Positions 15,715 to 62,621 of a stretch of 64,000 nucleotides of DNA are shown in pieces. The notes below the pieces were generated by a model. The model was not told where the DNA came from, did not search any database, and saw only the letters and a list, made by a program, of their open reading frames with translations. Location of the stretch: contig CAWBZV010000005.1 of the NCBI GenBank assembly GCA_963793305.1, forward strand, positions 1,440,001 through 1,504,000. The letters are read 5' to 3'. Position 1 is the stretch's first letter. Each line of letters starts with the position of its first letter. The DNA is from an uncultured Gemmatimonadales bacterium. GTDB taxonomy: Bacteria; Gemmatimonadota; Gemmatimonadetes; Gemmatimonadales; Gemmatimonadaceae. The translations under genes were made by a program, and so were the position numbers.

Positions 15715-16754
15715 GCGACCGGCTGCTCGATGAGTTCCTGGCCGGCCGCCCCGCCGCGCTCGCCCGTGCCGTCAGCGTCGTCGAAAACCATCGACCCGGG
15801 TTCGACAAACTGCTGGGCGCCGTCCACAGCCGGATCGGCCGCGCCCGCCGCGTGGGCCTCACGGGCCCGCCCGGCGCTGGCAAAAGCACGCTGACCGCCC
15901 GCCTTGCCCGCGCATACCGGGAGCAGGAGCTCGGCGCAGCCGGGCTCCATCCAACCGACCAGTCGAGCAGCGCTAGCGCTGCATCGACGCGCCGCGGAGC
16001 GGCGCTCACCGTCGGCGTTCTGGCCGTAGACCCGACATCGCCGTACACGGGCGGAGCGTTGCTCGGCGACCGCGTGCGCATGGAAGCAGTGGCCTTGGAC
16101 CGCGGCGTCTATATCCGGTCGCTCGCCACGAGAGGCGCACTCGGTGGTCTCTCGGCCGCCACGCGCGAGGTCGCTGATCTCCTCGACGCGTTCGGATTCG
16201 ACCGCATCCTGATCGAGACCGTCGGCGTCGGTCAGAGCGAGCTGGAAGTCGCGCGGACCGCGGACACGATCGCCGTTGTCCTTGTCCCGGAATCGGGCGA
16301 CGGGATACAGGCGCTCAAGGCCGGCCTCATGGAGATCGCGGATGTGTTCGTGATCAACAAGGCTGACCGACCCGGCGCGGATCGGCTCAAGCGCGACATC
16401 GACACCGCGTTGCACTATCGCCCGCCGGCGGCCTGGACCCCGCCCGTGATCCCGACGGTTGGCGTCACCGGCGTGGGGCTTAGCGAGCTGCACGCGGCGC
16501 TCGATCGGCATCATCAGTATCTTGTAGAGAGCGGGACGTTGGCCGCCCGGCGCCAATCGCGCCTGCGGGAACGGGTTGTGGACGTCGTCGACCAGCGGCT
16601 CAAAGCTCGTGTCTGGGACGACCCGAGCGCCGCCGAGTGGCTCGCGGCCCGTCTGGCGCCGCTCGCGGCGGGAGAGACGACGCCGTTCGCGGTGGCCGAT
16701 GAGCTGTTGGAACGGCAGTTCAACCGAGGATCCAAGCATGACGGTCACGCATAG
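15711..16754 (+). CDS. meaB: Acyl-CoA mutase-associated GTPase MeaB, with ~25-aa in-frame insertion
   Basis: [45 protein letters not shown]. Confidence 0.93.
15926..16000 (+). repeat. Double-hairpin element, copy B, in frame inside meaB (75 bp)
   Basis: GGAGCTCGGC-GCA-GCCGGGCTCC, core TCCAACCGACCAGTCGAGC (15950-15968), tail GCATCGACGCGCCGCGGAGC. Confidence 0.85.
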
Positions 16755-18429
16755 AACGGGATCATCGGCTACGGCTGATGACGATCGGGCCGAGCTCGAG
16801 CGCCTCCGTAAGGAAGTGGCCGCGTGGCGGGCTCAATACGCGAAGGGCGAGACTCGGGCTATCGGGTTCACCAATTCCGGTGGAGAGGTCGAGCCGCTCT
16901 ATACCGCGCTCGATGTCCCGAATGCCGACCTTGGTGTCCCCGGCGAATTCCCGTTCACGCGTGGTATCCATCCGACAGGCTATCGTGGCCGCCTGTGGAC
17001 GATGCGCCAGTTCGCGGGCTTCGGCTCAGCCCGTGACACGAACGCGCGCTACAAGTTCTTGCTCGCCCGCGGCCAGACCGGCCTCTCCGTTGCGTTCGAC
17101 TTCCCAACGTTGATGGGCTACGACTCCGACCATATTCGAGCGGAAGGCGAGGTCGGAAAGTGCGGCGTCGCGATTTCGAGCTTGCGGGACATGGAGACGT
17201 TGTTCGACGGCATCCCGCTCGACAAAGTCTCGACGTCGATGACTATCAACGGGCCCGCGATCATTCTGTTCGCGTTCTATGTCGCGGCAGCCGAACGCCA
17301 GGGTGTGCCGTCAGAGGTCCTCCGTGGGACCATTCAGAACGACATCCTGAAGGAATACATGGCCCAGCACGCCTGGGTCTACCCGGTGGAGCCGGCGCTC
17401 CGTCTGGTCGTCGATTGCTTCGAATGGGCCGCGAAGCACACGCCAAAGTGGAACACGATCTCGATCTCCGGCTACCACATCCGCGAAGCAGGCTCCACGG
17501 CCGCCCAAGAGCTCGCGTTCACCCTCGCCGACGGCTTCACGTACGTCGAGCGGGCCCTCGCGCGCGGCCTCAATGTCGATGAGTTCGCGGGCCAGCTCTC
17601 GTTCTTCTGGGACGTCCACAACGATTTCTTCGAAGAGATCGCGAAGATGCGCGCCGCGCGCCGCATCTGGGCGCGCCACATGAAAGAGCGCTACGGTGCC
17701 CGTCATCCGCGCTCATGGATGATGCGGTTCCACTCGCAGACGGCCGGCGTGACGCTGACCGCGCAGCAGCCGCTCAACAACATCACGCGCGTGGCCTACC
17801 AGGCTCTCGCCGCCGTCCTCGGCGGCACGCAGTCCCTGCACACGAACTCGATGGACGAGACGCTGGCGTTGCCCACCGAGGAAGCGGTGCAGGTCGCGCT
17901 GCGCACGCAGCAGATCCTGGCCTTCGAGACCGGTGTCCCCAACGTCGTCGACCCCCTCGGCGGCTCGTACTACATCGAATCGCTGACGGACAGCCTCGAG
18001 GCCGAGGCCGAGTCGCTGTTCGAGCAGGTGGCCGCGGTCGGTGGGGTCGTCCGCGCACTGGAGACCGGTTGGCTGCAACGCCGGATCGCCGAGTCGGCGG
18101 CTCGTCAGCAGTGGGAGCAAGAACAGCGTCGCCGGCTGACGGTTGGCGTCAATGCCTTCGAGTCGGAGAGTGGGGACGAGCTGACGATCCCGTTGCTCCA
18201 GATCGACGACACGGTGATCGAGCAGACCGCCCGGCTGGCCGCGTTGCGCGCGAATCGCGATGCCGCGCGCGCGGAACAGGCGCTCGCTCGCCTTACCGCG
18301 ACGGCCGCGACATCCGAGAACGTGCTTCCGGCGATCATCGATGCGGCCAAGGCCGATTGTACGCTCTTCGAGATCCGGAACGCCATGGAGAAGGTGTTCG
18401 GCGCGTATCGCGAGCCGATCTTTTTTTGA
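16738..18429 (+). CDS. B12-dependent acyl-CoA mutase large subunit with isobutyryl-CoA-mutase-type residues
   Basis: [54 protein letters not shown]. Confidence 0.92.
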
Positions 18430-18989
18430 GTGGACCGCGCGGCTGTTTCGGCCAGCTCATCGGCTGCATAGTCGTTGTCGCGGCCCTCGGCGTCGCGTGC
18501 TTTGGGTTCGACGCCTACATCTTGGCTCCGTGGGCGCACGGCAGCGGGCCGTTGCTGACGCGCACATGGGTCGGCCAGTTCCAAACGCCGGAAGGCAGAC
18601 ATGGCGTGCTGGAGCTTCGACTGACGCACGTGATTACCGGTCGCCGCGGCCACGACTGGGACCGACGTGGTAGGGGACTCCTCGGCGGCACGGCCCGCTC
18701 CTGCGGTCTCGCGACCTGGCCGACCTATGATCTCGCCGGTTCGGCCAATCACTCGGCGGACAATGTGAGCATCGTGATCGCACCACCGCGCCCGGCGCCC
18801 AACGGGATGTACTTGCACGAGCTGCGCGGCTCTTGGTCAGGCGACTCCTTGCGACTCGCCGGAGTTCTCGCGGCGTATGCCGGCAACACGAGCACGTATC
18901 ACGGCGGGGCGCCCGACGAGAACCAGCCGACCCACTTTACGCTCCATCCAGGCACTGACGCCGACTTCGATCGCCTGTGCCACCAGTAG
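18426..18989 (+). CDS. Hypothetical membrane-anchored protein
   Basis: TTG overlapping the mutase stop, one N-terminal TM, fills the operon gap. Confidence 0.6.
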
Positions 18990-19717
18990 AATGGTGGAAG
19001 CGGTATTTCGACGGGAAGTATCTCCAGGAGTACGAGCCGATCTTCTCGGCCGCCGAAGATCGCCGGGATGTCGCGCGTCTCATCGAGATGCTCCGTCTCC
19101 CGGTCGGCGCCCGGATCCTGGATGTCCCATGCGGACAAGGACGCCACGCCAGGCTGCTCGCCGAAGCCGGATTCGACGTCACGGGCCTGGACTACTCGCG
19201 CCACTTGCTGCAGCTCGCCAAAGCCGACGGATCCGGCGTCCGCTACGTCCGCGGCGACATGCGCCGGCTATCGGCGCGATGGACGGGGAGGTTCGACGCC
19301 GTCGTCAATCTCTTCACATCGTTCGGGTTCTTTCTCGACCCCGCTGACAACGTCCGGGTCGTTCGCGAATTCGCGCGGGTGCTCGCTCCCGGTGGCGTGC
19401 TCGTGTGGCACGGGGCGAGCCGGGACGGCGTGATGGCGCGGTATATCGCCAAAGATTGGTGGCAAAGCAACGACGGGACGATGATCGCCCACGAGCGCAC
19501 GTTCGATCCGCTGTCCGGTATCATGTCGGTTTACGTCCGACAGGGAGACGCGGAGCGACAGTATCGCATACGCCTGTACACGGCGACGCGTTTGGCCGAG
19601 TTGTTTGCGGCCGAAGGGTTGATTGTCGAGGAGGCATATGACGGTTGGAGCGACAGGCCGCTCGGGCGCCGGACGACGTCGATGGTGCTAGTGGCTCGCC
19701 ATTCGCCTGCGACGTAA
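18977..19717 (+). CDS. Class I SAM-dependent methyltransferase
   Basis: ILDVPCGQGRH, RGDMR, NLFTSFGFF. Confidence 0.9.
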   Translation: MPPVEWWKRYFDGKYLQEYEPIFSAAEDRRDVARLIEMLRLPVGARILDVPCGQGRHARLLAEAGFDVTGLDYSRHLLQLAKADGSGVRYVRGDMRRLSARWTGRFDAVVNLFTSFGFFLDPADNVRVVREFARVLAPGGVLVWHGASRDGVMARYIAKDWWQSNDGTMIAHERTFDPLSGIMSVYVRQGDAERQYRIRLYTATRLAELFAAEGLIVEEAYDGWSDRPLGRRTTSMVLVARHSPAT

Positions 19718-19729
19718 ATTTCCAACGGG

Positions 19730-20143
19730 ATGTCCAGACCAATCCGTGTGCTGGTAGCGAAGCCGGGACTCGACGGCCACGATCGCGGCGCCAAGGTCGT
19801 CGCCGCGGCGCTGCGCGATGCCGGCATGGAGGTGATCTACACGGGCCTGCACCAGACGCCCGAGATGATCGCCACGGCCGCGGTGCAGGAGGACGTCGAT
19901 GTGGTCGGCCTGTCCATTCTGAGCGGCGCGCACATGACGCTCTTCCCGCGCGTGTTGGAGCTCCTCAAGGCCGATGGGCGCGAGGACATTCTGCTCACTG
20001 GCGGCGGGATCATCCCCAAGGACGACATGGAGTCGCTGCACAAGCTCGGTGTCGGCCGCTTGTTCGGCCCCGGGACGACGACCGGGGAGCTCGTGACGTA
20101 CATCAAGGAGTGGTTCGCCGAACGGCAGCGGCAAGAGGTGTGA
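19730..20143 (+). CDS. Acyl-CoA mutase small, cobalamin-binding subunit
   Basis: [26 protein letters not shown]. Confidence 0.94.
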
Positions 20144-21723
20144 CCAGCCGCCTCCGTCAGCTCAGCGACGAGATCCGATCGCTCGACGCGCGCATTGAAT
20201 CCGGCGGTGGCCCGGACAAGATCGAGCGCCAGCATGCGCAGGGGAAGATGACGGCGCGCGAACGCGTGGCCGGTCTCACCGACCCCGGCGCGCGCTTCGT
20301 CGAGATCGGACTGCTGGTCGCGTACGACCAGTACGAGGGCCAGGCCCCGGCGGCTGGCGTCGTCACCGGCATCGGGGTCGTGCACGGCCGCGAAGTCGTC
20401 ATCGTCGCCAACGACGCGACGGTGAAAGCGGGTTCGTGGTGGCCCGAGACGATCAAAAAGATTCTTCGCGCGCAAGAGATCGCCATGCGCTGCCGCGTCC
20501 CGATCGTCTACTTGGTCGACTCCGCGGGCGTGAACCTCCCCTATCAAGGCGGAGTCTTCCCGGGTCAATACGGCGCGGCGCGGATTTTCTACTACAACTC
20601 GATCATGCGGCACTATCTCCGCGTGCCGCAGTTCGCCGCGGTGATGGGACCCTGCATTGCTGGCGGCGCCTATCTGCCGGCGTTGTCCGACGTGATCATC
20701 ATGGTGAAGGGCACATCCTTCATGGGACTCGGCGGGCCGAACCTCGTCGAGGGCGCAACCGGGCAGTTGGTCGACTCCGAGAGCCTCGGCGGCGCGACGA
20801 TGCACACGTCAGTCAGCGGCGTTGCCCATTACATAGCGGATAACGACGCGGCGTGCCTCACGCACTTGCGTGCGCTGATCGACCGTCTCCCGCCGTCTGT
20901 TGTGTCAGCCGGCGGTGCGGTGCAGCCGCGCGACGCCAAGATCCTCTACGAGCTGCTCCCAGCCGATCACCGCATGTCGTACGACATGATCCCGGTCCTC
21001 AAGGCGATCGTCGACGATGGCCAGCTGGATGAGTTCCAAGCCGATCTCGCGCGCGAGCTGATTTGCGCTGACGCCCGCCTCGGCGGGATGCCGATCGGCG
21101 TCATCGCCAATAGACGGGGTCTGATCAAGGGCCGCGAAGGCGAGAAGCCGCGGTTTGGGGGCATTATCTACGCCGAGAGCGCCGAGAAGGCGGCGTACTA
21201 TATCGACCGCTGCGACCGCGAGGGGATGCCCCTCCTGTTCGTGCAGGACGTCTCCGGCTTCATGGTCGGCCAGGAAGCCGAGGAAGAGGGAATCATTCGC
21301 GCGGGCGCCCGCTTCGTCGAAGCGATGGCCACCGCGCGCGTCCCGAAGCTCGTTCTCACCGTCAACCACGCCTCCGGCGCTGGCTACTACGCGATGGCGG
21401 GGCAGGGCTTCGACCCGGATTTCATCTTCTCCTGGCCCACGGGTCGGATGGGAGTCATGGAGGGCGAGTCTGCCGTTCGCGCCGTCCACGGCCCCGCGCT
21501 CGCCGCCGCGAAAGCCGCGGGCCGCGCACCCGCGCCGGCCGTCACCACGGCGATCGAGGGGATGCGCGAGGAATACGACACGCAACTCGACGCCCGCTAC
21601 GCCGCCGCGCGCGGGTTCGTCGACGCCATCGTGTTCCCCGAGGACACCCGCAACGTCCTCATCCTCGCGCTGCGCACCTCACGGCACAACCCGGGTCCGC
21701 ACCTCGGCCCCTTTCTGTTATGA
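20140..21723 (+). CDS. Acyl-CoA carboxylase carboxyltransferase subunit (MCC-beta-like)
   Basis: [44 protein letters not shown]. Confidence 0.92.
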
Positions 21724-23054
21724 AAAAAGTCGTACGCGTAGGAGGCGGTCAGGGATTCTGGGGCGACGATCCCGACGCGCCGCGCCGCCTCGTCGAAGGC
21801 GGACCGATCGACTACCTGATGCTCGACTATCTGGCCGAAGTCACGATGTCGATTCTGCAGAAGCAGAAAGAGCGCGACCCGAAGGCCGGCTGGGCCCGCG
21901 ATTTCGTGGGCGCAGTTCAAAGCGTCCTGCCGTTTGTGGCCCGCGGTCTCAAGATCGTCGCCAATGCGGGCGGAGTGAATCCAAGAGGCTGCGCGGACGC
22001 CGTTCGCGGAGTCGCTCCGGATGTCCGCATCGGCGTCGTCACGGGCGATGACCTGCTGGGCCGCCTCGACGAATTGGTTGCCCAAGGTCACCAGCTGGCC
22101 AACATGGACACCGGTCAACCGTTGTCGACGGTCCGCGACCGGGTGCTCTCGGCGAATGCGTACATCGGGTCGGCGCCGATCGTCGAAGCGCTGCACAAGG
22201 GCGCCCAGATAGTCGTCACTGGCCGCTCGACCGACACCGCATTGACCATGGCGCCCCTCCGCCACGAATTCGGTTGGACCGCAACCGACTATGACAAGCT
22301 GGCCGCGGGAATTGTCGCGGGCCACATCATCGAGTGCGGCGCCCAGTGCTCTGGCGGCAATTGCCTCTATGAGTGGCGCGAGATCCCGGATCTCGCCAAC
22401 GTCGGCTACCCGGTCATTGAAGGCTCGCCCGATGGCTCATTCGTTGTCACCAAGCATCCGGGCACGGGCGGGCGCGTGTCGGTCCACACGGTCACCGAGC
22501 AGTTGGTCTACGAGATGGGCGACCCGCACTCATATATCACCCCTGACGTCGTCGCGGATTTCACGACGATCCGACTCGCCCAAGATGGCGAGAATCGCGT
22601 TCGCGTGTCCGGCATTCACGGCGCTCAGGCGACCGACAAGTTGAAAGTCTCGATAGCCTATCGCGCGGGATACAAAGCCGTGGGCACGTTGGTGTATGTG
22701 TGGCCCGATGCACTCGAGAAAGCCCGCGTCGCGGATCGCGTGCTGCGCGAGCGGTTGGATCGCCTCGGCCTCAAATTCGACAAGATCCTGACGGAGTTCG
22801 TCGGCGTCTCGGCCGCGCATGGCCCCCTGACGCCGTCGACGGATGCACCCGAAGTGCAGATGCGCGTCGGAGTACGAGCCGAAAACAAGGCGGCCGTCGA
22901 GGGATTTAGCCGACAGATCGCGCCACTGGTTCTGAACGGCCCTCCGAGCGTGACGGGCTTCGCGGGGGGTCGCCCGAAGGTCGAAGAAATCGTCGCCTAC
23001 TGGCCAGCGCTGATCGACAAGCGCGTCGTCCAAACCACGGTGACGATCGTCTGA
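21720..23054 (+). CDS. Acyclic terpene utilization AtuA family (DUF1446)
   Basis: [44 protein letters not shown]. Confidence 0.9.
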
Positions 23055-23383
23055 TGCGCATTCCTCTCATCGATATTGCGCACGCCCGATCGGGCGACAA
23101 GGGCGACACCGCCAACGTCGGCGTGATCGCCCTCGATCCAAAGTGGTACCCGGTGCTGGCGAAGTACCTGACGCGCGATCGCGTCGCCCAGCATTTCGCG
23201 GGGGTGATCACCGGCGGCGTCGATCGTTACGAATTGCCGAACCTCGGCGCGCTTAATTTCTTGTTGCACGGCGCACTCGACGGTGGCGGCACTTTGTCGC
23301 TCAAGACCGACGCGCAGGGTAAAGTCTTCTCGACAGCGTTGCTCCGCCTCGTCCTCGATATCCCGGATGCGGAGGTCCCATGA
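23054..23383 (+). CDS. AtuA C-terminal-like small protein
   Basis: AHARSGDKGD.ANVG, LDGGG..SLKTDAQGK. Confidence 0.88.
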   Translation: MRIPLIDIAHARSGDKGDTANVGVIALDPKWYPVLAKYLTRDRVAQHFAGVITGGVDRYELPNLGALNFLLHGALDGGGTLSLKTDAQGKVFSTALLRLVLDIPDAEVP

Positions 23384-24147
23384 TACATGTCCGTGTAGAG
23401 CGACGGAATGACGGGACGATCGGCGTACTGACGCTGGCCCGTCCGGAAAAGAAAAACGCGCTCGACCGCGCGATGGCCGATGCACTCGTCGCGGGCCTGG
23501 CGGAGTTCAAGTCGGACCAGACCGTCCGCGTCGTCCTCCTCGCGGCCGACGGCGCCGACTTCTGCGCCGGCGCCGACCTGGCCGCGCTCGGCGCCATGAT
23601 CGATCTGGGCCCGGAGGCGCACGTCGCCGACGCCGAGTCGCTGGTGCGGGTGTTCATTGCGCTGCGCGACTTGCCCCAGCCCGTGATTGCGGCCGTACAA
23701 GGACACGCGCTCGCGGCTGGCGCGGGTCTCGCGACCGCGGCCGACATCATCCTCGCTCGCGAGGACGCGCGTTTTGGGTATCCGGAGGTCCGCATCGGAT
23801 TCGTCCCGGCTATGACGCTCCCAATGCTGCGCCTCGCCGTCGGCGAAAAGATCGCGGCCGAGCTGGTGCTCACCGGTCGCACGCTGATGCCGGCCGAGGC
23901 GCTGGCGTTGGGTCTCGTGAGCCGCGTCATTCCGAGCGCCTCGTGGGAGGAAGGGATTCGCACGACGCTCGACCGCATCGCGTCGTCGCCCACCGGGCCG
24001 GTGCGCATCACGAAGCATCTGCTCTACGCGCTCGACGATCTCACGTTCGACGACGGCTTGCAGCTGGGTGTGCAAGCCAACGCCGCGGCGCGATCGACCG
24101 AGGAGTTCAGGGCTGGCATTCGCGCGTTTATGACACGACGGCCGTGA
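23380..24147 (+). CDS. Enoyl-CoA hydratase/isomerase family
   Basis: RPEKKNAL, FCAGADL, FGYPEVRIGFVPA. Confidence 0.9.
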   Translation: MIHVRVERRNDGTIGVLTLARPEKKNALDRAMADALVAGLAEFKSDQTVRVVLLAADGADFCAGADLAALGAMIDLGPEAHVADAESLVRVFIALRDLPQPVIAAVQGHALAAGAGLATAADIILAREDARFGYPEVRIGFVPAMTLPMLRLAVGEKIAAELVLTGRTLMPAEALALGLVSRVIPSASWEEGIRTTLDRIASSPTGPVRITKHLLYALDDLTFDDGLQLGVQANAAARSTEEFRAGIRAFMTRRP

Positions 24148-24305
24148 CGCCACTCGCGACCTGGCGGGTCACGATCGCGATCGCCGGGATCGTTGTATTC
24201 ATGTGGGGCGCCAAAACCCAGAATGAAGCCGCGCGGTGGGTCGGCATTGCCTGCCTCGTCCTGGCCTTGGCCCTTCGATTCCTCGGATCCAGACGGCCGC
24301 GTTAG
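24144..24305 (+). CDS. Small two-TM hypothetical protein (53 aa)
   Basis: GTGA overlap with the upstream gene; two hydrophobic segments. Confidence 0.6.
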   Translation: MTPLATWRVTIAIAGIVVFMWGAKTQNEAARWVGIACLVLALALRFLGSRRPR

Positions 24306-24331
24306 CACGGCGGCGTTAGCTTTCGGTCGTC

Positions 24332-26838: not shown

Positions 26839-26890
26839 CAATTGTCGATCCGCTCCGCCTCCGTCCGTCGCTTGGACAACAGGAGGAACA

Positions 26891-28048: not shown

Positions 28049-28091
28049 CGGACTGTGCAACTGAACCCGCGAGGGTTGATGGGAGGGAACA

Positions 28092-44198: not shown

Positions 44199-44222
44199 GG
44201 CGAGAGGATGTAGCGTCGGGGC

Positions 44223-50979: not shown

Positions 50980-50987
50980 TAGGGGCT

Positions 50988-51308: not shown

Positions 51309-51309
51309 T

Positions 51310-51579: not shown

Positions 51580-51603
51580 CGCGTCAAGGTCGTTGTCGCA
51601 TTG

Positions 51604-51633
51604 AGGCGCTCTCTCTACGAGGGCGCCTTTTTT
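51604..51633 (+). terminator. Intrinsic terminator after rpmA
   Basis: AGGCGCTCTC-loop-GAGGGCGCCT followed by a T run. Confidence 0.85.
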
Positions 51634-51723
51634 GTTGACTCGTTGGTGATTGGGGTGTGAGGAGCGCCGGTAAACGTGTCCCTCGCAATGAGACACGGAC
51701 CCGCCACCCTGAGGACCACTTCC

Positions 51724-53915: not shown

Positions 53916-55172
53916 CGTCTTGTAGCGCTCCATCAGCAGGTCTTGGCGCGATGGCGCCTTGACCTGCTGACCGCGCACAAAGACCGCCACGGTCTGCGTG
54001 CTGAACTCGAACGGATCGCCAGACCAGATGACGACGTTCCCGTCGCGCCCAGCCTGGAGCGTCCCGACGCGATCGGCGACGCCGAAGATCTCGGCGGGCG
54101 CGAGCGTGATCGCCTTGAGCGCCTCGTCCCACGACAAGCCATACGCGACCGAGGTCCCGGCCTCCTGCCGGATATTGCGCACGTTGAACGGCGACCCATC
54201 CTCTTCGCCCCCGTTGCCAATGAGCGCCACATTGACGCCGGCCTTGCGGAGCAGCGCGATGTTGTCGTGCCGCTGGCCCAGCTCCTCGAAGCTGTTCGGA
54301 ATGTTGTCCAACGCGCCCGTCAGCACCGGGATCTTCGCCGCAGCCAGTGCCGGCGCCACCTCCCATGCCTCGGCGCCACCGCCGACGATGAGCTTCACGC
54401 CGTACGCCTTGGTGATCGCCATCGCCTCGGTGATGTCGCTCGCCCGGTCGACGAACATGATGAGCGGCAGCCGGCCCTCGACGACGGGAATGAGTGCCTC
54501 GAGATCGGCGTGACTCGCCGACAGCGCCCGCGACTGCGCGCGATCATACGCCGCCTTGTTGGCCGCGTACGTCTTGACGTCGTCGAACAACTCGCGCAGC
54601 CGCGCCGCCATCTCGCCGCGCGTGTACCCTTCGGGCCCTCCCCCTCGACGCCCGAACCCGGCGCTCGTGTTGCCGAACTGCCCGACCATTGCCGCCGACG
54701 ACCGGACAATCATGTCGCTCGACGCGAGATCGACGAATCCCGCCTGTCCGAGGATGACGCCACTGCTTTGCGGGATATCGACGACGCTGGTGACGCCGTC
54801 GTTCCGCGCGGGTTGGATCATGATCGAGAGCGGGTTGAACCCATCGACGACGCGGAACGATGCGGCGACCCCATTTTCGCCACTGGCGCGCTCGTCGGAC
54901 GTACTCGATACCGCCTGAACTTCTTCAACCCCGAGCTCGGTCGCCGAATTGATGAGACCCGGCGTCACCCATTTGCCCGTGGCATCGATCGTCTGCGCAC
55001 CGGCCGGCACGCTGACGTTGGCGCCGACCGCGGCGATCTTGCCGTCGCGGATGATCACGGTTCCATGCTCGATCTTTGGCCCGCTCACCGGATACACCGT
55101 GCCGCCGGTGATGGCGATCGTCTGCGCCCGCGCCGCCGTGGCGGCGACTAGCGCGATCAAGGCGTATTTCAT
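53886..55172 (-). CDS. Amidohydrolase family, secreted, degenerate metal motif
   Basis: DATGKWVTPGLINSAT (no HxH), TLAPAEIFG, W.GDPF. Confidence 0.85.
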   Translation of the reverse strand: MKYALIALVAATAARAQTIAITGGTVYPVSGPKIEHGTVIIRDGKIAAVGANVSVPAGAQTIDATGKWVTPGLINSATELGVEEVQAVSSTSDERASGENGVAASFRVVDGFNPLSIMIQPARNDGVTSVVDIPQSSGVILGQAGFVDLASSDMIVRSSAAMVGQFGNTSAGFGRRGGGPEGYTRGEMAARLRELFDDVKTYAANKAAYDRAQSRALSASHADLEALIPVVEGRLPLIMFVDRASDITEAMAITKAYGVKLIVGGGAEAWEVAPALAAAKIPVLTGALDNIPNSFEELGQRHDNIALLRKAGVNVALIGNGGEEDGSPFNVRNIRQEAGTSVAYGLSWDEALKAITLAPAEIFGVADRVGTLQAGRDGNVVIWSGDPFEFSTQTVAVFVRGQQVKAPSRQDLLMERYKTLPRPAYRGP

Positions 55173-56620
55173 CGTCCAGCCTCCGCCGGCACGTACCCGA
55201 GGTCGAAGTCGGTTCTCCACCGATGGGCCGGATCCGAGCGATCATAGAGCATCGCGCCGTCGATCCAGACCTTCTCGGCGTGCGCGTAGACGCTGAACGG
55301 ATCGCCGGACCACAGGACCACGTCCGCGTCCTTGTTCGCCTCGAGCGACCCGATCTTGTCGTCCAGCCCGAGCGCCCACGCGGGGTTGATCGTCATCCAC
55401 TTCACGGCTTGATCTTCACTCACCGGGATGCCGATGGCCGCGCCGGCCGACATGGCCTTCGCGACTTCCTGATTGAGTCGCTGGTTCCCCTGGGGATCGT
55501 CGGAGTGGATCATCGCCTTCGCGCCCGCGTGATCGACGAGCGCCAGGTTGCCACGCACGGCGTCCTCGGCCTCCATCTTGAACATGCCCCAGTCCGCCCA
55601 GCCGGCCGCGCCGATGTTCTCCTTCGCGAGCAGGTCGCCGATCTTGTAGCACTCGACGCAGTGGTGGAACGCGCGGACGTGATAGCCGAACTCGTGCGAC
55701 ATGTCGATGATCTGCGCCATCTCGTCGGCACGATAGCAGTGCATCTGGACCAGAATGTTGCCCCGCAGCACCTCGGCCAGCGTCTCGAGGCCGAGATCGC
55801 GCTTGGGCGGCTCGCCCTTATGATCGGCGTTCCACTTGTCCCACGAGCGCCGGTACTCCTCGGCGGCGATCCACGCCTTGCGGTAGCCCGCCATGTTGCC
55901 CATGCGCGTCGACGGCCCGCGCTGCGCATACACGCGCTTCGGATTCTCGCCGCAGGCCATCTTCATACCGTACTTCGCGCCCGGGAATTTCATCTCCTGG
56001 ACCGTGCGGGCCGGCACCACTTTGAGAATCGCGCTCCGGCCGCCAATGAGATTGGCGGAGCCCGGCAGCACCTGAATCGTCGTCACGCCGCCCGAGATGC
56101 TGCGCGCGAACTGCGGATCTTGCGGCCAGACCGAGTGCTCGGCCCACACATAGGGCGTGGTCGGATCCGTCGCCTCGTTGCCGTCGGAGTTGGCATCGAC
56201 GCCCGGGGCAGGGTAGTCGCCCATGTGCGAGTGCACATCGATGATCCCCGGCGTCACGTACTTCCCGGTGCCGTCGATGACCACCGCATCGCCAGGCGCA
56301 TCCACGCTCGCGCCCACCGCGATGATCTTGCCGTCGCGCATCACGATCGACCCGTTCTGAATCGTCGGCCCCGCCGCCGTCAGAATCGTCGCGTTCTTGA
56401 TGACCGTCGTCTTCGACGGGAACGGCCGGTAGGTACTCGGATACGGATCCGCGTTGGGAACCGAGAGCGCGCCCGGTCCGGGCTTGCTCTCCGTCGCTTT
56501 CGAAGTGGTCGTCGTGTCCGGCTTCGCCGGCTCCGGGCCTGTTTTGACTTGGACTGGCGCGGGTGTGCACGCGGCCACCGCGCACAGCACGGCCATTGGG
56601 AGTCTATGCATGGGCGCCAA
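55169..56620 (-). CDS. Amidohydrolase family lipoprotein
   Basis: TPGIIDVHSH, KMACGENPKRVY, HSDD, KDADVVLWSGDPF. Confidence 0.9.
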   Translation of the reverse strand: MAPMHRLPMAVLCAVAACTPAPVQVKTGPEPAKPDTTTTSKATESKPGPGALSVPNADPYPSTYRPFPSKTTVIKNATILTAAGPTIQNGSIVMRDGKIIAVGASVDAPGDAVVIDGTGKYVTPGIIDVHSHMGDYPAPGVDANSDGNEATDPTTPYVWAEHSVWPQDPQFARSISGGVTTIQVLPGSANLIGGRSAILKVVPARTVQEMKFPGAKYGMKMACGENPKRVYAQRGPSTRMGNMAGYRKAWIAAEEYRRSWDKWNADHKGEPPKRDLGLETLAEVLRGNILVQMHCYRADEMAQIIDMSHEFGYHVRAFHHCVECYKIGDLLAKENIGAAGWADWGMFKMEAEDAVRGNLALVDHAGAKAMIHSDDPQGNQRLNQEVAKAMSAGAAIGIPVSEDQAVKWMTINPAWALGLDDKIGSLEANKDADVVLWSGDPFSVYAHAEKVWIDGAMLYDRSDPAHRWRTDFDLGYVPAEAGR

Positions 56621-56659
56621 TACTACCGCCCATGCGTGCCGAGGGCTAGAGGCGCCGCG

Positions 56660-57317
56660 TTACACAAACGTCCCGGCGATATCCGAGCAGATCGCATCCA
56701 CGCCGAGCGCGTCCAGCGCGGCAAAGTCGGCGCGTTCGTTGACGGTCCACGCGATGACGCGCCCCCCGGCGTCGTGCACCAGCCGCACGAGATCGCGGTC
56801 GATGAACGACCACTGCAGCCAGTAGTCCCTGGCCCCGGCGTTTTGGAGAGCGCCACCCGGATCGATGAGGTAACTGTCGAGCAGGATGCCCGTCGGAATG
56901 CTCGGCCGAATCGAGGTGACCCTCGCGGCGACCCGGTGGTCAAACGCATGGACCGCGGTCGGCACTCTCGCATAGTCCAACACCTCGATCACGGCCTCCT
57001 CGATCCCCTTGGCTTTCACCTCGACATATACGACCGGCGGCGGTGTAGCCTTCGCCATGCGATCGAGAAGAGCCGCCAGGGTCGGAATCTCGACCCCGGG
57101 CGCCAGCGGATACCGGTGCAGTTCGGTGAGCGTCAGGGTATTGATTAAGGGTCCGTGTCGAATGTTCGGGTCGTGGTGCACGACGACCACCCCATCTTTC
57201 GTCGCGTGGACGTTCGAGCTCAATTCCATGGACCTTCTGCCGTACCGCCAACTCGAAGCCCGGTAACGAGTTCTCAGGCTCCTGGCGCGGGACGCCCCGA
57301 TGCGCGATGATCTCCAC
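56660..57317 (-). CDS. Glycerophosphodiester phosphodiesterase; frameshift ~57214
   Basis: IIAHRG...PENSL..F, VHATKDG..VV.HD, VEVK, AWTVN, GVDAICSD. Confidence 0.88.
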
Positions 57318-57339
57318 TCATGAACGTTAACGTTGGCCG

Positions 57340-57946
57340 ATGACTGGCGTCAGACCTGTGAGGAAGGGCGTCTCTCCAGAACCTGATGGTGCCGGGTCAG
57401 ACGAGGCGATCGACCGGGAATTAATTGCCCGGTGGCTCGCGGGCGACCAACGGGCGGCGACGACGCTCGTGGAGCGGCATGCAACCGCGTTGTCACGGTT
57501 CGCGGCGGCCATGGGTGGAATGACTGGATCTGACGTTCGATGAGCTGGTACAAGATACATTCGTTCGCGCGTTCAACTCGCTGGAGTCGTTCCGCGGCGA
57601 GAGCTCGCTCCGGACGTGGCTCTTCACGATCGAACGCCGGCTCATGCTCGACCGGCGGCGCGCCGAGCGCCGGCGGCCGGAAAAGATGCCGGTGGCGGAA
57701 GGCGATGCCGCGAGCGAGTACACCGCGCTCGATGGGATCGTGGCGGATGAGATGCAGGAGCGGGTGCGCGTGGCGGTCGATCGGTTGACCGCGCTGCAGC
57801 GGGAGGTCTTCACGTTGCGCGTGACCGAAGGGTTGTCGTACAAGGAAATCGCCGATATCGTCGGCTCGACGGAAGGCGCGGCGCGCGTGCACTATCATCA
57901 TGCGATGCGGGCCGTGAAGGAATATCTGGGAGTGCCACATGCGTGA
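57340..57946 (+). CDS. ECF RNA polymerase sigma factor; frameshift ~57537
   Basis: DRELIAR..AGDQRA; DELVQDTFVRA...FRGESSLRTWLF; QREVFTLR..EGLSYKEIA. Confidence 0.88.
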
Positions 57947-58487
57947 GTGTCAGGACGAGACGGTCAAAGACGTGTTGCCCGAGTTCGCCGCGGGTCGCCT
58001 GGGTGCGGCCGACGCGGCTCGTGTGACTGCCCACGTCGAGGCGTGTCCCTCCTGCGCGGCGGAGTTAGCGGTCGTGCGCGCAGCGCACGCTGCGTTCCGG
58101 GCGCCGGCGGTTGACGTCGCCCGCATCGTCGCCGCGCTCCCAACGCCTCCCGCGAAGGTGATCGAGCTTGCGCCACGTATGCGCAAGCGCCGGTTTACCT
58201 CCTGGCGCATTGCCGCGACGATCGCGACGATCGCCGTGAGCGGCGTCTCGATCGGCGTGCTCCAAGGTGTCCTGCGCGACAACAAGCCGCCCGCCGTCAA
58301 GCGGGTGGTCTTGAAGGCGAGTGACGCAGCCGAGGCCTCCGGACTCAGCGTCGGCGGAAGCCTGAACGACCTGAGCGACAAGGAGATGCAGACGCTGCTC
58401 GACAAGCTGGATGAGCTCGACGCGGTCCCGTCGGCCGAGCCTCAACCAGCGGTATCAGGCATGCGCGCGGCCGCTGGAGTCCAATGA
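57939..58487 (+). CDS. Zinc-finger (HxxxCxxC) anti-sigma factor
   Basis: AHVEACPSC plus one TM. Confidence 0.85.
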   Translation: MRECQDETVKDVLPEFAAGRLGAADAARVTAHVEACPSCAAELAVVRAAHAAFRAPAVDVARIVAALPTPPAKVIELAPRMRKRRFTSWRIAATIATIAVSGVSIGVLQGVLRDNKPPAVKRVVLKASDAAEASGLSVGGSLNDLSDKEMQTLLDKLDELDAVPSAEPQPAVSGMRAAAGVQ

Positions 58488-58993
58488 TCGTTCGGCTTGT
58501 ATGGGCGCTGTCGTTGATCGCTACGACCGCTCTGGCACAGGACGCGGCGCAGCAGAATGTGGACTCGTCGCCGGGGCGGAAGGCGCTGGCCCAGCAAATC
58601 CGCCAGCGCTGGCAGCAGATCGTGCGCGATCGCTTGGGCCTGAACGAGGTCCAGATGCGGCAGTTGCAGGAAACCACGCGCCATTTCAACGCGCAACGGA
58701 ACACGCTCAATCAGCAGGAGCGCGCGATCCGCATCGAGATGCGCGATCAGGTGACGGGCGTGGCGCCGACGGATGACAAGCACCTCGCGGCGATGATCGA
58801 CACGGTGCTCGATCTCCAGCGCCAGCGTCTGGAGCTCACGCGGAACGAGCAGCGGGAATTGTCGTTATTTCTGACGCCGCTCCAGCGCGTCAAGTACCTC
58901 GCGCTCCAGGAGCAGCTGCGCCAGCAGATGGAGCGACTACGCCAGGCCTCGCTCGCGCGTGGGCAGACCCCCGAGGACAGCGCCGCGTTTTAG
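58484..58993 (+). CDS. Periplasmic Spy/CpxP-like helical protein
   Basis: Signal peptide; RLGLNEVQ; FLTPLQR motif. Confidence 0.72.
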   Translation: MIVRLVWALSLIATTALAQDAAQQNVDSSPGRKALAQQIRQRWQQIVRDRLGLNEVQMRQLQETTRHFNAQRNTLNQQERAIRIEMRDQVTGVAPTDDKHLAAMIDTVLDLQRQRLELTRNEQRELSLFLTPLQRVKYLALQEQLRQQMERLRQASLARGQTPEDSAAF

Positions 58994-60454
58994 CGCGGCC
59001 AGCACCGCTTCCACCGCCGGCGAGATCCGCGTCAGTTGGGGCACTGGCGGCAACGCCTCATTGCGTAACCCTTCCTCCGCCCGCGCGGCGAAGTCTTTGA
59101 GATCGTTGTCTCGCGCCAACATCGCTAGCAAGCGGTAGGCGAGCGATGCCGTCGAAGGCTGCCCCAGTCGCCGATACCCGTCGCCGAGGCGATAGTAGAA
59201 CTGCGCTTTGAGCCGGGTCCCTATGGGCCCGGACTCGATCGCCCGGCGCCACTCCTCGAACGTGGTCGCGTCGCCATCGTCGCCGGCCAGCCGCAGCAGG
59301 TTGATCGCGGCATTGAGCCGGATGTCCGGCTGCTCCGTCATATCGTAGAGGATGTGCAGGGCATCCCGCGCGCCGGCCCGAGCGCCGATCGCCGAGAGTG
59401 TGCTCGCCAGGTCAGCGAGGGCCCGCATCTGTGAGCGGACGTCATCGTAGCCCGCGAACGCCTCGTAGAGTAACGGCGCGGCGGCCTCGTATTGCCCTAA
59501 CCGCACGGCTATCGCGCCGCGCTCATGGCACGCCCGCGACCGCGTCTCGCGGTGGGCCTCGCGCTCGGGGTTCGCCTCGGCGATCACCTCGTCGAGGATA
59601 TCGGTGGCGGTCTCGATATCCCCCTGCTCAATCGCCAGGTCGGCTTCCGACACGCGAATGCGGAGGGCGCCGGTCGTATCCGACAACATGCGCGCCACGC
59701 GCAATCCGCGCTGGTAGATCGCGCTCGCCTGGCAGATGCGGCCGAGTTGCCGATGGGAGAGGCCGAGCCGCAAATACACGAGCGGGATGCCTTCGTGCTC
59801 GTCGGGCCGATGCGCTTGCTCCAGCAGCGTTTCGTAGACATCGATCGCCAGCGGCCACTCGCCGGCTTCCTCGAGCAGCAGGCCGTAGGCGAACAGGAGC
59901 TTGGGGATCGACCCGACATCCTCCGTCGCGAACTCGCGCATCGCGTCGGTCATCTTGAGGAGGACTTCGTGCACGCGATCGTCATCAACGTCGTCTATGG
60001 CGCGTCGCACCAGCACGTACTCTTTGAGCGTCGGTGTCCGTCCCGTCACGTTGCGCACCGCCCACCGATCGATGAGGCGCAGCGTCAGCAGTCCCGCCGT
60101 CATCTCGCGCCAAATGGGCGAGTTGTCATCGGAGATCTCGGCGACCCGGCGAAAGAATGCCCCGTGCGACAGGCCGCCGCTCGCTGGCTCTTCATCGTCC
60201 TCCACGCCCTCGATCGCCGACATCGGCAGCGGCGGAACGATCTCGGCGGTCAGCGCTTCCGGCTCCGTCGGCGCGCTCGTCTCGACCGGGCGCCAGTAGA
60301 ACTCGAGCTTGACGTTGCCTTGGCTGTCACGCGTGACGCGCTTCTCGCGCACGAATCCGTTGCAGCATTTCGCCGCATCGTCGGCGGCGACCCACGAGTG
60401 CTTCAAGGGCCCGGTGCAGAGATAGATGCCCGCCGGGGTCGAAGCGTCAGCCAT
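58937..60454 (-). CDS. TPR-like helical repeat protein with small N-terminal Cys/His domain
   Basis: Repeats such as YGLLLEEAGEWPLAIDVY and LGLSHRQLGR..QA..IY. Confidence 0.75.
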   Translation of the reverse strand: MADASTPAGIYLCTGPLKHSWVAADDAAKCCNGFVREKRVTRDSQGNVKLEFYWRPVETSAPTEPEALTAEIVPPLPMSAIEGVEDDEEPASGGLSHGAFFRRVAEISDDNSPIWREMTAGLLTLRLIDRWAVRNVTGRTPTLKEYVLVRRAIDDVDDDRVHEVLLKMTDAMREFATEDVGSIPKLLFAYGLLLEEAGEWPLAIDVYETLLEQAHRPDEHEGIPLVYLRLGLSHRQLGRICQASAIYQRGLRVARMLSDTTGALRIRVSEADLAIEQGDIETATDILDEVIAEANPEREAHRETRSRACHERGAIAVRLGQYEAAAPLLYEAFAGYDDVRSQMRALADLASTLSAIGARAGARDALHILYDMTEQPDIRLNAAINLLRLAGDDGDATTFEEWRRAIESGPIGTRLKAQFYYRLGDGYRRLGQPSTASLAYRLLAMLARDNDLKDFAARAEEGLRNEALPPVPQLTRISPAVEAVLAALKRGAVLGGLPTRERGLA

Positions 60455-60774
60455 GGTCACGGAAACTATTTGGTTTTGTGCCGCACACCAGAATGCGGCG
60501 GTGCTGCGACACATCGATACATCACTGTGTACTCGGTGTGGATACCGAGATGTGCACAGCGCCTGCGGCGACCGCGCACAGCGCTACTGTTGCACAAGCG
60601 GCCGAACATGAGACGTTTCACATCAACTCGATCGCGCGGCGACCGCGTACGGCGCCCCGGGCGGACGATCGAAGCGCAAACAGGTTCATGTGAACGCTTC
60701 ATGTCCGGTCGAAGCGCTTCACACGGGCCGGATGTGACAGGCTTCATGTCCGCTCAAGCGCGCACGACCGCGCA

Positions 60775-60820
60775 GTGTCGCCAGACGCTGTCACCAGACA
60801 CTGTCACCAGACGCTGTCAG
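60775..60820 (+). repeat. 13-bp tandem repeat (CTGTCACCAGACR) x~3.5
   Basis: Seen directly. Confidence 0.88.
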
Positions 60821-60849
60821 CGGTCGCCGAAGGCGCTGCGTACTTCGCG

Positions 60850-61725
60850 CTATGCAGGAACAGCGCGCAGCGCGGTCTCCAGAATCTGGCGCACGCGAGC
60901 GCGATCAGCCTCGCTGAGGTCACGAAGCGGTGGCCTAACGGGACCGCCGTACAATCCAACTTCGTCCATAGCCGCCTTCACGCCAGGCACGCCGAGCTCT
61001 CCGACGATCTCGCGAGCGACTGGCGTGAGCTGGTCCTGGAGCTCCCCGTTCTCCCAAACGGCCTCGGTCAGCGCCGGCACGATGAGCGCGACCGCAAGAA
61101 TGCCGCCGCGAACCCCTGCGGCCACGGCACGCGCCAGCGTCCCCCCGTGCCCGGTCAGCACGCTGAACGTATCCGACTGCGCCTCGAGGTATCCGGCGAG
61201 CACGGCGGCGTCCCCGCCCGAGTCCTTGATGCCAATGATATTCGGATGCCCCGCCAGCTCCCGCACAACCGCGGGCGGAATCGCGTAGTGCATGTACTTG
61301 GGTATGCTATAGAGTACGACGGGCGCCCGGCTGGAATCGGCCACGGCCCGATAGTGGGCGAGCAAGGCAGCCGGAGTACTGCTGTCCGGGTAATAGTGCG
61401 GCCCCACGACCAGCACGGCGTCCGCGCCGAGCGACGACGCCTCGGCCGCCCGCCGGATGGTATGCCGCGTCGACTCGGCCCCAACGCCGGCGATGAGCCA
61501 CCGGTCCGCGGGCACGACGTCCCTCGCCGCGGTCAGCAATCGCCGCCGCTCGTCCTCATCGAGCAGCGCCGCCTCACCGGTCGATCCGGTGACGACGATG
61601 CCATGGCACCCGGCGCCGAGATGCGCGCGGATATTGTCGGCGAACGCCCGAATCGCGAGCTGCCCCTCGCCCGCCTCGAACGGCGTGGTCACGGGGGCAA
61701 GGATGCCTTTCAAGACTGAAATCAT
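60850..61725 (-). CDS. Dihydrodipicolinate synthase/class I aldolase family
   Basis: PVTTPF, GSTGEA, VLYSIP, IIGIKDSGG. Confidence 0.9.
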   Translation of the reverse strand: MISVLKGILAPVTTPFEAGEGQLAIRAFADNIRAHLGAGCHGIVVTGSTGEAALLDEDERRRLLTAARDVVPADRWLIAGVGAESTRHTIRRAAEASSLGADAVLVVGPHYYPDSSTPAALLAHYRAVADSSRAPVVLYSIPKYMHYAIPPAVVRELAGHPNIIGIKDSGGDAAVLAGYLEAQSDTFSVLTGHGGTLARAVAAGVRGGILAVALIVPALTEAVWENGELQDQLTPVAREIVGELGVPGVKAAMDEVGLYGGPVRPPLRDLSEADRARVRQILETALRAVPA

Positions 61726-61736
61726 GGGACGAAAAT

Positions 61737-62621
61737 TTAATCGTGCTCCAAGATGCGCGCCGCCAGCTCCCGCACGATCTTCGCGGCGACCCACGGCGTG
61801 ATGCCGGCGGGATCGAGGCCGGGATTGCACTCGACAACGTCCGCGCCAATCACGGTCCCCCGCACGCGCTGAATGATCTCGATCACCTGACGGGTCGAGA
61901 AGCCACCCGGCTCACGGTGCGCCACACCGGGAGCGAACGCGGGGTCGAGCCCATCGAGATCGACCGACACATAGAGCGGCTCGGCGAAGCTGAACACCCG
62001 CCCGTCGGTCCAGTCTCGCATGGTCACGACCTCGACGCCGAATCGATCAGCCTGTTCTCTCAGGTGGCGATTCATCGTACGAATGCCCACCTGGACGAGC
62101 CGATCGGCGAGCCCTTCTTCCATGATCCGCGCGAAAGGACACGCGTGAGAGTACTTGTGCGGCTCCGCCGCACGTCGATGCGCTTCGCGCTCGACTGGTC
62201 GGTTGGAACGGAGCTCGATAGAGCTGAGCTCCGGGGCGAAGTTGTCGTAGAGATCCGAGTGGGCATCGATGTGCAGGATGGCGAGCCGCGGAAACCGCCG
62301 CCGCACGGCCCGGATGAGCGGATACGTAATGGAGTGATCGCCACCGAGCACAATTGGTCTGTTGCTCGAAGCCATCACTGCGGCCATCGCCGCCTCGATG
62401 CGTACCCGGATATCGTCGTCCGTGCCAGTGACGCCCACGTCCCCCGCGTCGATCAGCGTACCCGGCGCCCGCACATCGACCATGGACTCCGTCCAACCGT
62501 TCGTCGCGCTGGACGTGAACGCGTCCCGGATCGCGGCGGGACCTTCCGCGGCCCCGCGCTGAAACGATGAGGCTGCGTCGTACGGAACGCCGAGCAAAGC
62601 GATGCGTGCGTGATCGGGCAT
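61737..62621 (-). CDS. Agmatinase/arginase family ureohydrolase, with ~24-aa in-frame insertion
   Basis: LGGDHSITY, HIDAHSDL, SHACPF, SVDLDGLDPAFAPGV. Confidence 0.92.
   Translation of the reverse strand: MPDHARIALLGVPYDAASSFQRGAAEGPAAIRDAFTSSATNGWTESMVDVRAPGTLIDAGDVGVTGTDDDIRVRIEAAMAAVMASSNRPIVLGGDHSITYPLIRAVRRRFPRLAILHIDAHSDLYDNFAPELSSIELRSNRPVEREAHRRAAEPHKYSHACPFARIMEEGLADRLVQVGIRTMNRHLREQADRFGVEVVTMRDWTDGRVFSFAEPLYVSVDLDGLDPAFAPGVAHREPGGFSTRQVIEIIQRVRGTVIGADVVECNPGLDPAGITPWVAAKIVRELAARILEHD
62161..62232 (-). repeat. Double-hairpin element, copy C, in frame inside the agmatinase-like gene (~72 bp)
   Basis: Minus strand GGAGCTCAGCTCTATCGAGCTCC-GT-TCCAACCGACCAGTCGAGC-GCGAAGC-GCATCGACGTGCGGCGGAGC. 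Confidence 0.85.

Follow-up and report, generated by a model that had tools for sequence, protein, structure and literature searches.

A 64-kb stretch of contig CAWBZV010000005.1 from an uncultured Gemmatimonadales bacterium (positions 1,440,001 to 1,504,000; hereafter the window) carries two short hairpin-forming segments inside two unrelated enzyme genes, meaB (methylmalonyl-CoA mutase-associated GTPase) and a gene of the arginase/agmatinase family. We found that the two segments are copies of one repeat with about a hundred copies in this genome, several of them at sites that are empty in close relatives. In our view these are likely to be genus-restricted, non-autonomous repeats of 75–95 nt that are moved by an enzyme, are mobile now or were so recently, and probably propagate through a single-stranded form of their top strand.

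The repeat family and its filled and empty sites

Within the window, the 19-base core TCCAACCGACCAGTCGAGC has exactly two matches, at 15950–15968 on the forward strand and at 62189–62207 on the reverse strand (0.03 matches expected by chance in 64 kb; two matches in none of 100 shuffles). The segments lie where the original prediction, made from the letters of the window alone, had placed them. They share the identical core that it described, and the meaB and arginase-family open reading frames (ORFs) both read through them in sense orientation and in frame. Pairwise alignment of the copies gives ~75 nt of homology that stops at the element edges. The predicted hairpins are real, but there are three of them and not two: what had been taken for a tail is the closing arm of hairpin 2 followed by a third hairpin. 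Likewise, the lengths of 75 and 72 bp first proposed hold as net gain over orthologues, but the structural extents are 80 nt and 77 nt (Table 1).

The genome assembly that contains the window (G000; 5.72 Mb, 26 contigs, 65% G+C, 92% complete) has 84 matches to the core at ≤3 mismatches. Further copies of the whole element are numerous: a nucleotide hidden Markov model (nhmmer) finds 103 in G000, and a covariance model based on 56 copies gives 105 (E ≤ 0.001). They are 75–95 nt long overall and fall into two types. Type A has 77 copies of ~75–83 nt, both window copies included, and type B has 26 copies of ~95 nt with a distinct, highly conserved first hairpin and a sharp 5' boundary. A third G000 variant, which matches weakly, shares hairpin 1 and the core with them, lacks hairpin 3 and has a CTTCGT...CCCGAAGCG stem.

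We screened for the core 16-mer at ≤1 mismatch in G000, in five genomes of the same genus (congeners G001–G005), and in 35 genomes of other genera of the same family or order. There are 82 matches in G000, 32, 15, 10, 1 and 1 in the congeners, and 0–1 in each of the other-genus genomes. No hairpins surround the single core matches in G002 or at the four other-genus loci inspected. The covariance model gives 34 matches in G001, 16 in G004, 60 in G003, and 13 and 2 (marginal) in the other two congeners; one of the G003 matches is strong and the rest represent related families. A 16-mer scan of a public genome collection returned chance-level single matches across many phyla, in an estimated ~520 stretches, which by our own arithmetic is of the order expected by chance in 596 Gb. 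Multiple matches were found only in Gemmatimonadaceae records of metagenome-assembled genomes. The repeat family occurs in one genus only, and its copy number differs greatly among the genomes.

The original prediction did not recognise the element as a described family, and our searches agree. Rfam has no match in the 64-kb window at gathering score and only chance-level matches around copy 1 (E 5.8–8.9). In the literature searched we found no paper pairing Gemmatimonas with transposable elements of the miniature inverted-repeat kind (MITEs), nor usefully Gemmatimonadetes with repetitive extragenic palindromic (REP) elements.

Comparison with relatives shows that the sites of the element are polymorphic. 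The meaB insert is absent from all five congeners, and its columns hold no residues in 23 of 23 aligned homologues, the nearest of which are 96–97% identical elsewhere. The insert in the agmatinase-like gene is absent from all four congeners that carry the gene. Further sites were tested by DNA search in the genus, counting only congeners with two flanking matches. None of the congeners so tested has an insert in polA, smc or rplQ (ribosomal protein L17), at C5:369497, or at the place where G000 has an antisense copy within an MBL-fold gene. The net gain is 75 bp in meaB, polA, rplQ, the MBL-fold gene, C5:369497 and C5:355385, and 72 bp in the agmatinase-like gene. Orthologues do not have equally long loops at the two window positions. 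Two G000 copies are shared with one relative each and their sites are empty in the other congeners: the B-type copy at C3:1515057 is common to G001 and the A-type copy at C5:355385 is common to G004.

In the reverse test, the flanks of 45 copies at 40 loci of G001 and G004 were compared with the G000 genome. By an automatic classification, in which several B-type cases lie in duplicated regions, the G000 site is empty for 26 copies (13 A, 13 B), filled for 16 (6 A, 10 B) and without a call for 3. Since 26 of the 45 sister copies are at sites empty in G000, the element is mobile, or was recently so. The central proposal of the original prediction, a non-autonomous mobile repeat that adds loops to proteins, is thus upheld by the ~100 copies and by empty sites in both directions, and as regards loops also by the Pfam-verified in-frame hosts and the structural model of MeaB given below.

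Contigs from two more data sets carry meaB in its filled form as well: another sample of the source study (X2) and an unrelated peat metagenome (X3). Among the sample and run contigs checked, none joins across the meaB insert, and some contigs end inside the element. At three G000 sites called empty (C6:54961, C22:16890 and C14:39897; loci L298, L309 and L279), 4–7 nt identical to the 5' arm of hairpin 1 in the relative (G001 or G004) are retained.

G003 holds related units that keep hairpin 1 and the unpaired core and have other 3' parts. A 63-nt unit forms a tandem array of seven, 97% alike, and a 66-nt unit is present as four copies in a tandem array. Relatives of 63 nt lie in frame and in sense inside the barrel domain of pyruvate kinase and inside a class-I glutamine amidotransferase. 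The array of seven is in frame and antisense near the start of an ABC-transporter ATPase, where it amounts to 7 × 21 residues. There is a wider superfamily of hairpin repeats within the genus.

Hairpin structure and its strand asymmetry

The element is made up of a hairpin 1 of variable sequence, a conserved unpaired core, (T)CCAACCGACCA, and hairpins 2 and 3. At its base hairpin 2 has the fixed sequence GTCGAGC...GC(A)TCGAC, in which the A is bulged, and its upper stem varies in length; hairpin 3 has the form GNGCSGC-GGA-GCSGCNC. Folding of both window copies predicted the three hairpins, with z-scores of –5.25 and –4.79 for DNA and –5.06 and –4.30 for RNA.

We looked for covariation in 56 A-type copies aligned with MAFFT with no structural input. 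Standard pairs occupy 91.4% of cells, versus 24–45% when partners are slid by 1–3 columns, and 16 of 28 pairs have changed on both sides; none of 500 column shuffles reaches any of five measures. The copies of one genome are related, and these covariation figures partly reflect subfamily structure. In hairpin 1, many differing sequences are all still paired, with covariation at 7 of 7 outer pairs. The lower 7 pairs of hairpin 2 are invariant or nearly so and its upper 5 covary. At pair 93:101 of hairpin 3, 30 copies have C-G, 25 have G-C and one has U-A, and no copy is unpaired. A compensatory double change in hairpin 3 also separates the C5:355385 orthologues of G000 and G004; this change and the many paired sequences of hairpin 1 exceed what the relatedness of copies would account for.

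The imperfect pairs are strongly asymmetric. G.U or U.G fills 56 cells versus 14 for A.C or C.A (P-value = 4e–7), and 22 versus 0 in hairpin 2 alone. An excess of G.U over A.C indicates that pairing is maintained on the written (top) strand rather than on the complementary one. How a copy lies relative to transcription makes no difference to this asymmetry (G.U:A.C of 26:1 in co-oriented and 19:0 in antisense copies). Hence the structure belongs to the top strand of the element and not to the transcribed strand. We regard this as the chief reason to propose that propagation has a single-stranded, strand-specific intermediate and to doubt that the hairpins are maintained in host mRNAs. The loops follow the C-GNA-G pattern, with GGA in hairpin 3 of 56/56 copies and GCA, GAA or GGA in hairpin 1 of 46/56. 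C-GNA-G loops form unusually stable DNA mini-hairpins.

Table 1. Element copies and host genes in the window, and loci of the third variant in G000
Feature	Position	Strand	Remarks
meaB, host of copy 1	15711..16754	+	ORF; Pfam MeaB, E 1.1e–85, in two stretches
Element copy 1, A-type	15926..16005	+	80 nt, in frame and sense in meaB; encodes residues ~72–98; covariance-model match 97.7 bits, 15921–16008
Copy 1, hairpin 1	15926..15948	+	GGAGCTCGGC-GCA-GCCGGGCTCC; folds as predicted as DNA and as RNA
Copy 1, unpaired core	15949..15961	+	A-TCCAACCGACCA; best-conserved single-stranded part, nearly invariant columns
Copy 1, hairpin 2	15962..15988	+	GTCGAGCAGCGC-TA-GCGCTGC(A)TCGAC; conserved bulged A, upper stem of variable length
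Copy 1, hairpin 3	15989..16005	+	GCGCCGC-GGA-GCGGCGC
Arginase/agmatinase-family gene, host of copy 2	61737..62690	–	ORF; Pfam Arginase, E 1.1e–70, residues 9–289 of the 297-aa call
Element copy 2, A-type, short hairpin 2	62157..62233	–	77 nt, in frame and sense; three hairpins on folding; covariance-model match 64.5 bits, 62154–62237
Copy 2, hairpin 1	62209..62233	–	
Copy 2, unpaired core	62196..62208	–	
Copy 2, hairpin 2	62174..62195	–	
Copy 2, hairpin 3	62157..62173	–	
Third variant, G000 loci	C3:1492736, C4:100900, C5:664782, C5:914647, C5:168190, C3:849159		

Placement, reading frame and insertion ends

Genes were called with a simple codon-usage caller (5,068 genes, 87% coding), which finds meaB and the agmatinase-like gene and is crude enough that the counts near gene ends given here are approximate. 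Out of the 103 copies, 31 are wholly inside a predicted gene (26 sense, 5 antisense), 19 sense and 10 antisense copies overlap a 3' end, and 38 are intergenic. Internal copies, those with at least 30 codons of host on each side, are 12 sense versus 2 antisense (P-value = 0.013). Between tandem genes, 45 copies are co-oriented versus 16 anti-oriented (P-value = 0.0003); 14 copies lie between convergent and 14 between divergent genes. The combined orientation with transcription is 57:18 (P-value = 7e–6). No link was found between orientation and the sign of the GC skew (odds ratio 1.09), and no replication-strand bias was seen. Nor does a target motif that is unequal between the strands account for the sense bias, the sense/antisense ratios of GAG-type motifs being 0.55–1.0. 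In 15 copies the stop codon of the upstream gene lies 1–4 nt inside the 5' boundary of the element; ten further copies are read through to a stop 2–53 nt past the 3' end, which adds C-terminal tails to their hosts.

The hosts are diverse. A Pfam scan of 30 of the 31 hosts with a copy inside found families in 25. Internal in-frame sense copies interrupt SMC (inside the hinge domain), DNA polymerase I (between the exonuclease domains), a zinc alcohol dehydrogenase (inside ADH_N), MazG, an ArsR-AHSA1 protein, a BNR-repeat protein, an SGL-family protein, nitrile hydratase beta, an 813-aa methyltransferase protein, MeaB and the arginase-family protein. The internal in-frame antisense hosts are the MBL-fold protein and a transketolase-like protein. 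C-terminal tails were found on ribosomal protein L17, aspartate-semialdehyde dehydrogenase, an SdhB-like iron-sulfur protein, two ECF sigma factors, a PAP2 phosphatase and others. In rplQ, the 75 bp entered three codons ahead of the stop and left the gene's own final codons and stop in place.

Element lengths are 70–87 nt with modes at 78, 76 and 75. Length is divisible by three in 11/13 internal copies versus 13/34 copies outside coding sequence (Fisher test, P-value = 0.008). All three frames are used by internal sense copies (5, 4 and 3). In each of the sense frames the encoded peptide is hydrophilic and of low complexity, with A, R, S, E, P, G, T and Q abundant, a mean hydropathy of –0.9 to –1.4 and a hydrophobic share of 9–14% of residues; peptides of the antisense frames are more hydrophobic (–0.1 to –0.8, 18–28%). 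In an AlphaFold2 model of MeaB (mean predicted local distance difference test score, pLDDT, 81.7; predicted template modelling score, pTM, 0.80), the insert lies between the P-loop helix (58–70) and the next strand (101–106) and is the sole long unstructured low-confidence stretch, residues 76–95 having pLDDT <50. As modelled, the MeaB fold is intact and the insert forms a disordered loop on it.

The consensus ends of the element, GGAGCTCGG... and ...GCGGCGC, are not reverse complements and so do not form terminal inverted repeats (TIRs). Junctions were studied in 17 filled/empty pairs with a usable single-gap alignment, of which 14 A-type pairs were re-examined. Microhomology of 0–5 nt, with no fixed length, is present at the junctions of 16 pairs; the 17th lies in a duplicated region. 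The similarity of empty sites to the insert ends is 2.9 and 3.1 of 10, and random 10-mers give 3.05 and 2.89. We therefore conclude that there is no target-site duplication (TSD), no TIR and no dependence on homology, and homology-guided insertion was rejected because target similarity to the element ends equals the random control. Long target duplication was rejected as a general mechanism as well, flank repeats being present in 4/103 copies, all B-type, two of which are one tandem duplication. A further idea, that hairpin 1 is templated from the target flank, was suggested by L298, L309 and L279; the same hairpin variants occur elsewhere, L308 and L292 contradict it, and it was not adopted. 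No fixed target motif was found: T or TA is often present just 5' of hairpin 1, and GAG stands at the junction in 6/8 empty sites, a post hoc observation against a hand-estimated background of 12% that we take as a hint only. The G000 assembly has neither a longer autonomous parent nor orphan halves of the element flanking a gene. One truncated copy was found, at C3:1461871.

After some B-type copies comes a diverged repeat of the last ~25–37 nt of the upstream gene, stop codon included, in the order gene end, 22–29 nt, element, repeated gene end. Such duplicated gene ends accompany 4/26 B-type copies (C3:634749, C5:191159, C6:62175 and C6:62388) versus 0/77 A-type copies, and one is also present in G001 (L256) at the site orthologous to C3:1515057. 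In two other B-type copies of G000 (C19:10109 and C14:29959) and in L288 of G001, ~60–70 nt of another hairpin-forming sequence are nested in the loop of hairpin 1, which suggests that elements insert into each other.

Possible mechanisms and relation to known systems

Overall, we suggest that insertion is widespread and that selection, by filtering insertions for length, orientation and position, retains only the harmless copies. Internal copies would survive when their length is a multiple of three and they lie in sense, the peptide then being tolerated as a disordered loop or a C-terminal tail; other survivors would be those at, or just past, stop codons. The hairpins may act as recognition structures on single-stranded DNA, as they do in IS200/IS605- and REP-type elements. 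The co-orientation with transcription might arise if, in transcribed DNA, the displaced non-template strand is where the top strand integrates.

Several points weigh against this picture, and the last step, integration into the non-template strand, is its most speculative part. The strand asymmetry fits an RNA intermediate equally well, and G.T wobbles are better tolerated in RNA than in DNA. The sense bias outside genes is beyond the reach of peptide tolerance, and the gene-end counts are only as good as the gene caller. The 4–7 nt kept at some empty sites could be either an excision footprint or insertion microhomology. In the RNA runs X19, a soil metatranscriptome, and X20, 0.04 of the words were found, and the X19 contig is an element copy from another locus. 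A single-strand, HUH-like mechanism is also a mechanism without an enzyme behind it here. The RAYT or IS200-like transposase envisaged in the original prediction was not found: Y1/RAYT (PF01797) has no match in any of the six genomes of the genus, closed G003 included, although the same search is positive in 6/14 controls, and TnpB (PF07282) is likewise absent from all six. Among these genomes, a reverse transcriptase is present in G003 only. IS110-type transposases occur in G000 (one partial match), G003 and G005; none is present in G001 or G004, whose element copies number 34 and 16, so IS110 does not track abundance. IS91 Y2 (PF04986) gave no matches, but the control genomes were silent too, hence this search is uninformative. 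Five of the six genomes are incomplete bins (completeness 67–95%), the closed one, G003, has mainly related families, and mobile genes often escape binning; the absence of an enzyme is therefore weak evidence.

Two further observations belong here. In G003, two reverse-transcriptase and two IS110-type transposase genes lie within ~16 kb (C1:238173–254045), likely a mobile-element island. Record 1 of X19 is a 516-nt contig with a relative's copy of the element (matching window positions 15926–15972), which could be due to transcription or to DNA carry-over.

An alternative, which develops one raised at the outset, is that the repeat is primarily a functional RNA element of host mRNAs (for example a 3'-end stabiliser, a terminator-like signal or a device for translational coupling), that selection holds it in sense beside stop codons and that internal copies are by-products. 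REP elements do protect mRNA 3' ends and affect translation when near a stop codon, and the co-orientation of 57:18, the 15 stop codons 1–4 nt inside the 5' edge, and the very stable RNA fold (z –5.06 and –4.30) with its tolerated G.U pairs are what such a role would lead one to expect. However, the G.U:A.C asymmetry is the same in antisense (19:0) and sense (26:1) copies, which means that pairing is not maintained in the host transcript, and this transcription-independent asymmetry weakens the proposal in particular. Sites are polymorphic both ways between very close species, unlike those of a conserved cis-element; 14 copies lie deep inside ORFs and use all three frames; Rfam has no match; and only ~60 of roughly 5,000 gene ends carry a copy. 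We consider an RNA function of this kind improbable. Equally hard to credit is the idea that a Y1 HUH transposase (RAYT or TnpA), encoded in an unassembled part of the genome or on an unbinned replicon, moves the repeat as an element of REP/REPIN or IS200/IS605 type. This would agree with the lack of TIR and TSD, the hairpins near both ends, the strand-specific pairing, the C-GNA-G type of all three loops and the 92% completeness of G000. But PF01797 is found in 0/6 genomes, the closed one among them, with 6/14 controls positive, and TnpB in 0/6; the architecture is not that of two inverted REPs, no orphan half-elements flank any gene, and no link of orientation to replication direction was found, to which IS200/IS605 insertion is tied through the lagging strand.

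It is very improbable that the element is not mobile at all, its copies being ancestral loops or local duplications lost in relatives, or sequences spread by recombination or gene conversion between GC-rich sequences. A few target nucleotides seem to be replaced at several junctions, GAG occurs at 6/8 empty-site junctions and B-type copies sometimes have duplicated flanks, all of which could be read this way. Against it stand ~100 dispersed copies of the same 75–95 nt in unrelated genes and spacers, the absence of the insert from 23/23 MeaB homologues and from every congener at seven tested sites, the constant insert size, and a target similarity to the element ends no better than random. A more far-reaching form of the mobile, single-strand reading that we prefer is rather unlikely as a whole but worth stating. 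In it, the repeats would form a modular superfamily of single-strand hairpin elements, each with a variable hairpin 1, a TCCAACCGAC core and interchangeable 3' modules (63, 66 and 75–95 nt), whose top strand a novel, non-Y1 enzyme would place into the non-template strand of transcribed DNA, a transposition system not described before. If true, this would explain the sense copies both at gene ends and inside genes, and would amount to a steady source of in-frame loops, tails and even tandem 21-residue arrays in core enzymes of a genus of soil bacteria.

Among known systems, the closest behavioural match is the Rickettsia palindromic elements (RPEs). The review PMC10969869 documents frequent in-frame insertion into metabolic genes and describes RPEs as short palindromic repeats with no known transposase that are thought to be compatible with the protein fold. 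Like RPEs, our element is inserted in frame into unrelated protein genes, with at least 14 internal copies (12 sense, 2 antisense) and hosts such as SMC, PolA, ADH, MazG, MeaB and the arginase-family gene. Unlike them, it resides in free-living soil Gemmatimonadaceae and not in an obligate intracellular alpha-proteobacterium, and shows a strong sense bias and clustering at stop codons. It is also smaller (75–95 versus ~100–150 nt) and has three separate hairpins and a conserved unpaired core. With all three sense frames in use, there is no single conserved peptide, unlike in an RPE family.

REP/REPIN sequences are described as abundant, lineage-restricted, non-autonomous hairpin repeats without TSD that persist in a lineage and whose copy number varies among relatives, a REPIN being two inverted REPs that occur with a single-copy RAYT (PMC3337134, PMC3116915, RAREFAN preprint). 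Our element resembles them in being a non-autonomous, lineage-restricted hairpin repeat without TSD and with unequal copy numbers among relatives. It differs from a REPIN in its three unlike hairpins, its unpaired core and the lack of a Y1 gene in 6/6 genomes, and from extragenic REPs in that 31/103 copies are within predicted genes, 14 of them at least 30 aa from either end. The IS200/IS605 family has no TIR or TSD, carries hairpins near its ends and uses one active strand ('peel and paste'); its autonomous copies encode TnpA (Y1) and often TnpB, and it inserts 3' of a conserved 4–5-nt target. Our element shares the lack of TIR and TSD, the hairpins near the ends and the pairing on the top strand only, and it differs in that neither TnpA nor TnpB was found in the genus; it may differ also in orientation and target, as no GC-skew bias and no clear conserved 4–5-nt 5' motif were seen.

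Mycobacterial interspersed repetitive units (MIRUs) are 40–100-bp intergenic repeats, oriented with transcription, that abut stop or start codons and form tandem arrays. The likeness is one of behaviour only (45:16 co-orientation, 15 stop codons at the 5' edge, and the 7 × 63 and 4 × 66 nt arrays of G003); MIRUs belong to a different phylum, and neither a covarying structure of several hairpins nor in-frame insertion into conserved enzymes is known for them. Small repeats with open frames that are occasionally fused in frame also include intragenic ERIC, BOX and other MITEs, as described in PMC10969869. Our repeat too is small, carries open frames and is fused in frame to host ORFs; unlike classical MITEs, which derive from DDE transposase elements and have TIRs and a TSD of fixed length, it has neither. 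We place the element in none of the RPE, REP/REPIN, IS200/IS605 and MIRU groups: its kind is known and the family is new.

That selfish palindromic DNA colonises housekeeping genes in frame has been seen mainly as a peculiarity of Rickettsia. Here the same behaviour is shown in a free-living GC-rich soil lineage by an apparently unrelated and much smaller element. As the insertions are polymorphic between species ~95% identical, the process can be studied as it happens, and hosts such as DNA polymerase I, SMC, L17, MeaB and, in a sister species, pyruvate kinase are natural experiments on the tolerance of disordered inserts and on the origin of new protein segments. With no TIR or TSD, a structure on the top strand only, a transcription bias and neither Y1 nor TnpB, no described mobiliser fits, which makes the family a lead to an unrecognised transposition mechanism. 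Such repeats also break assemblies and inflate protein-length variation in metagenome gene catalogues.

Two minor features of the G000 assembly concern its copies. Those at C6:1476 and C21:7241 are on different contigs and have identical flanks, which points to a duplicated region or to overlapping contigs. Several small contigs, including C21 with four copies, have a lower G+C content (62–63%).

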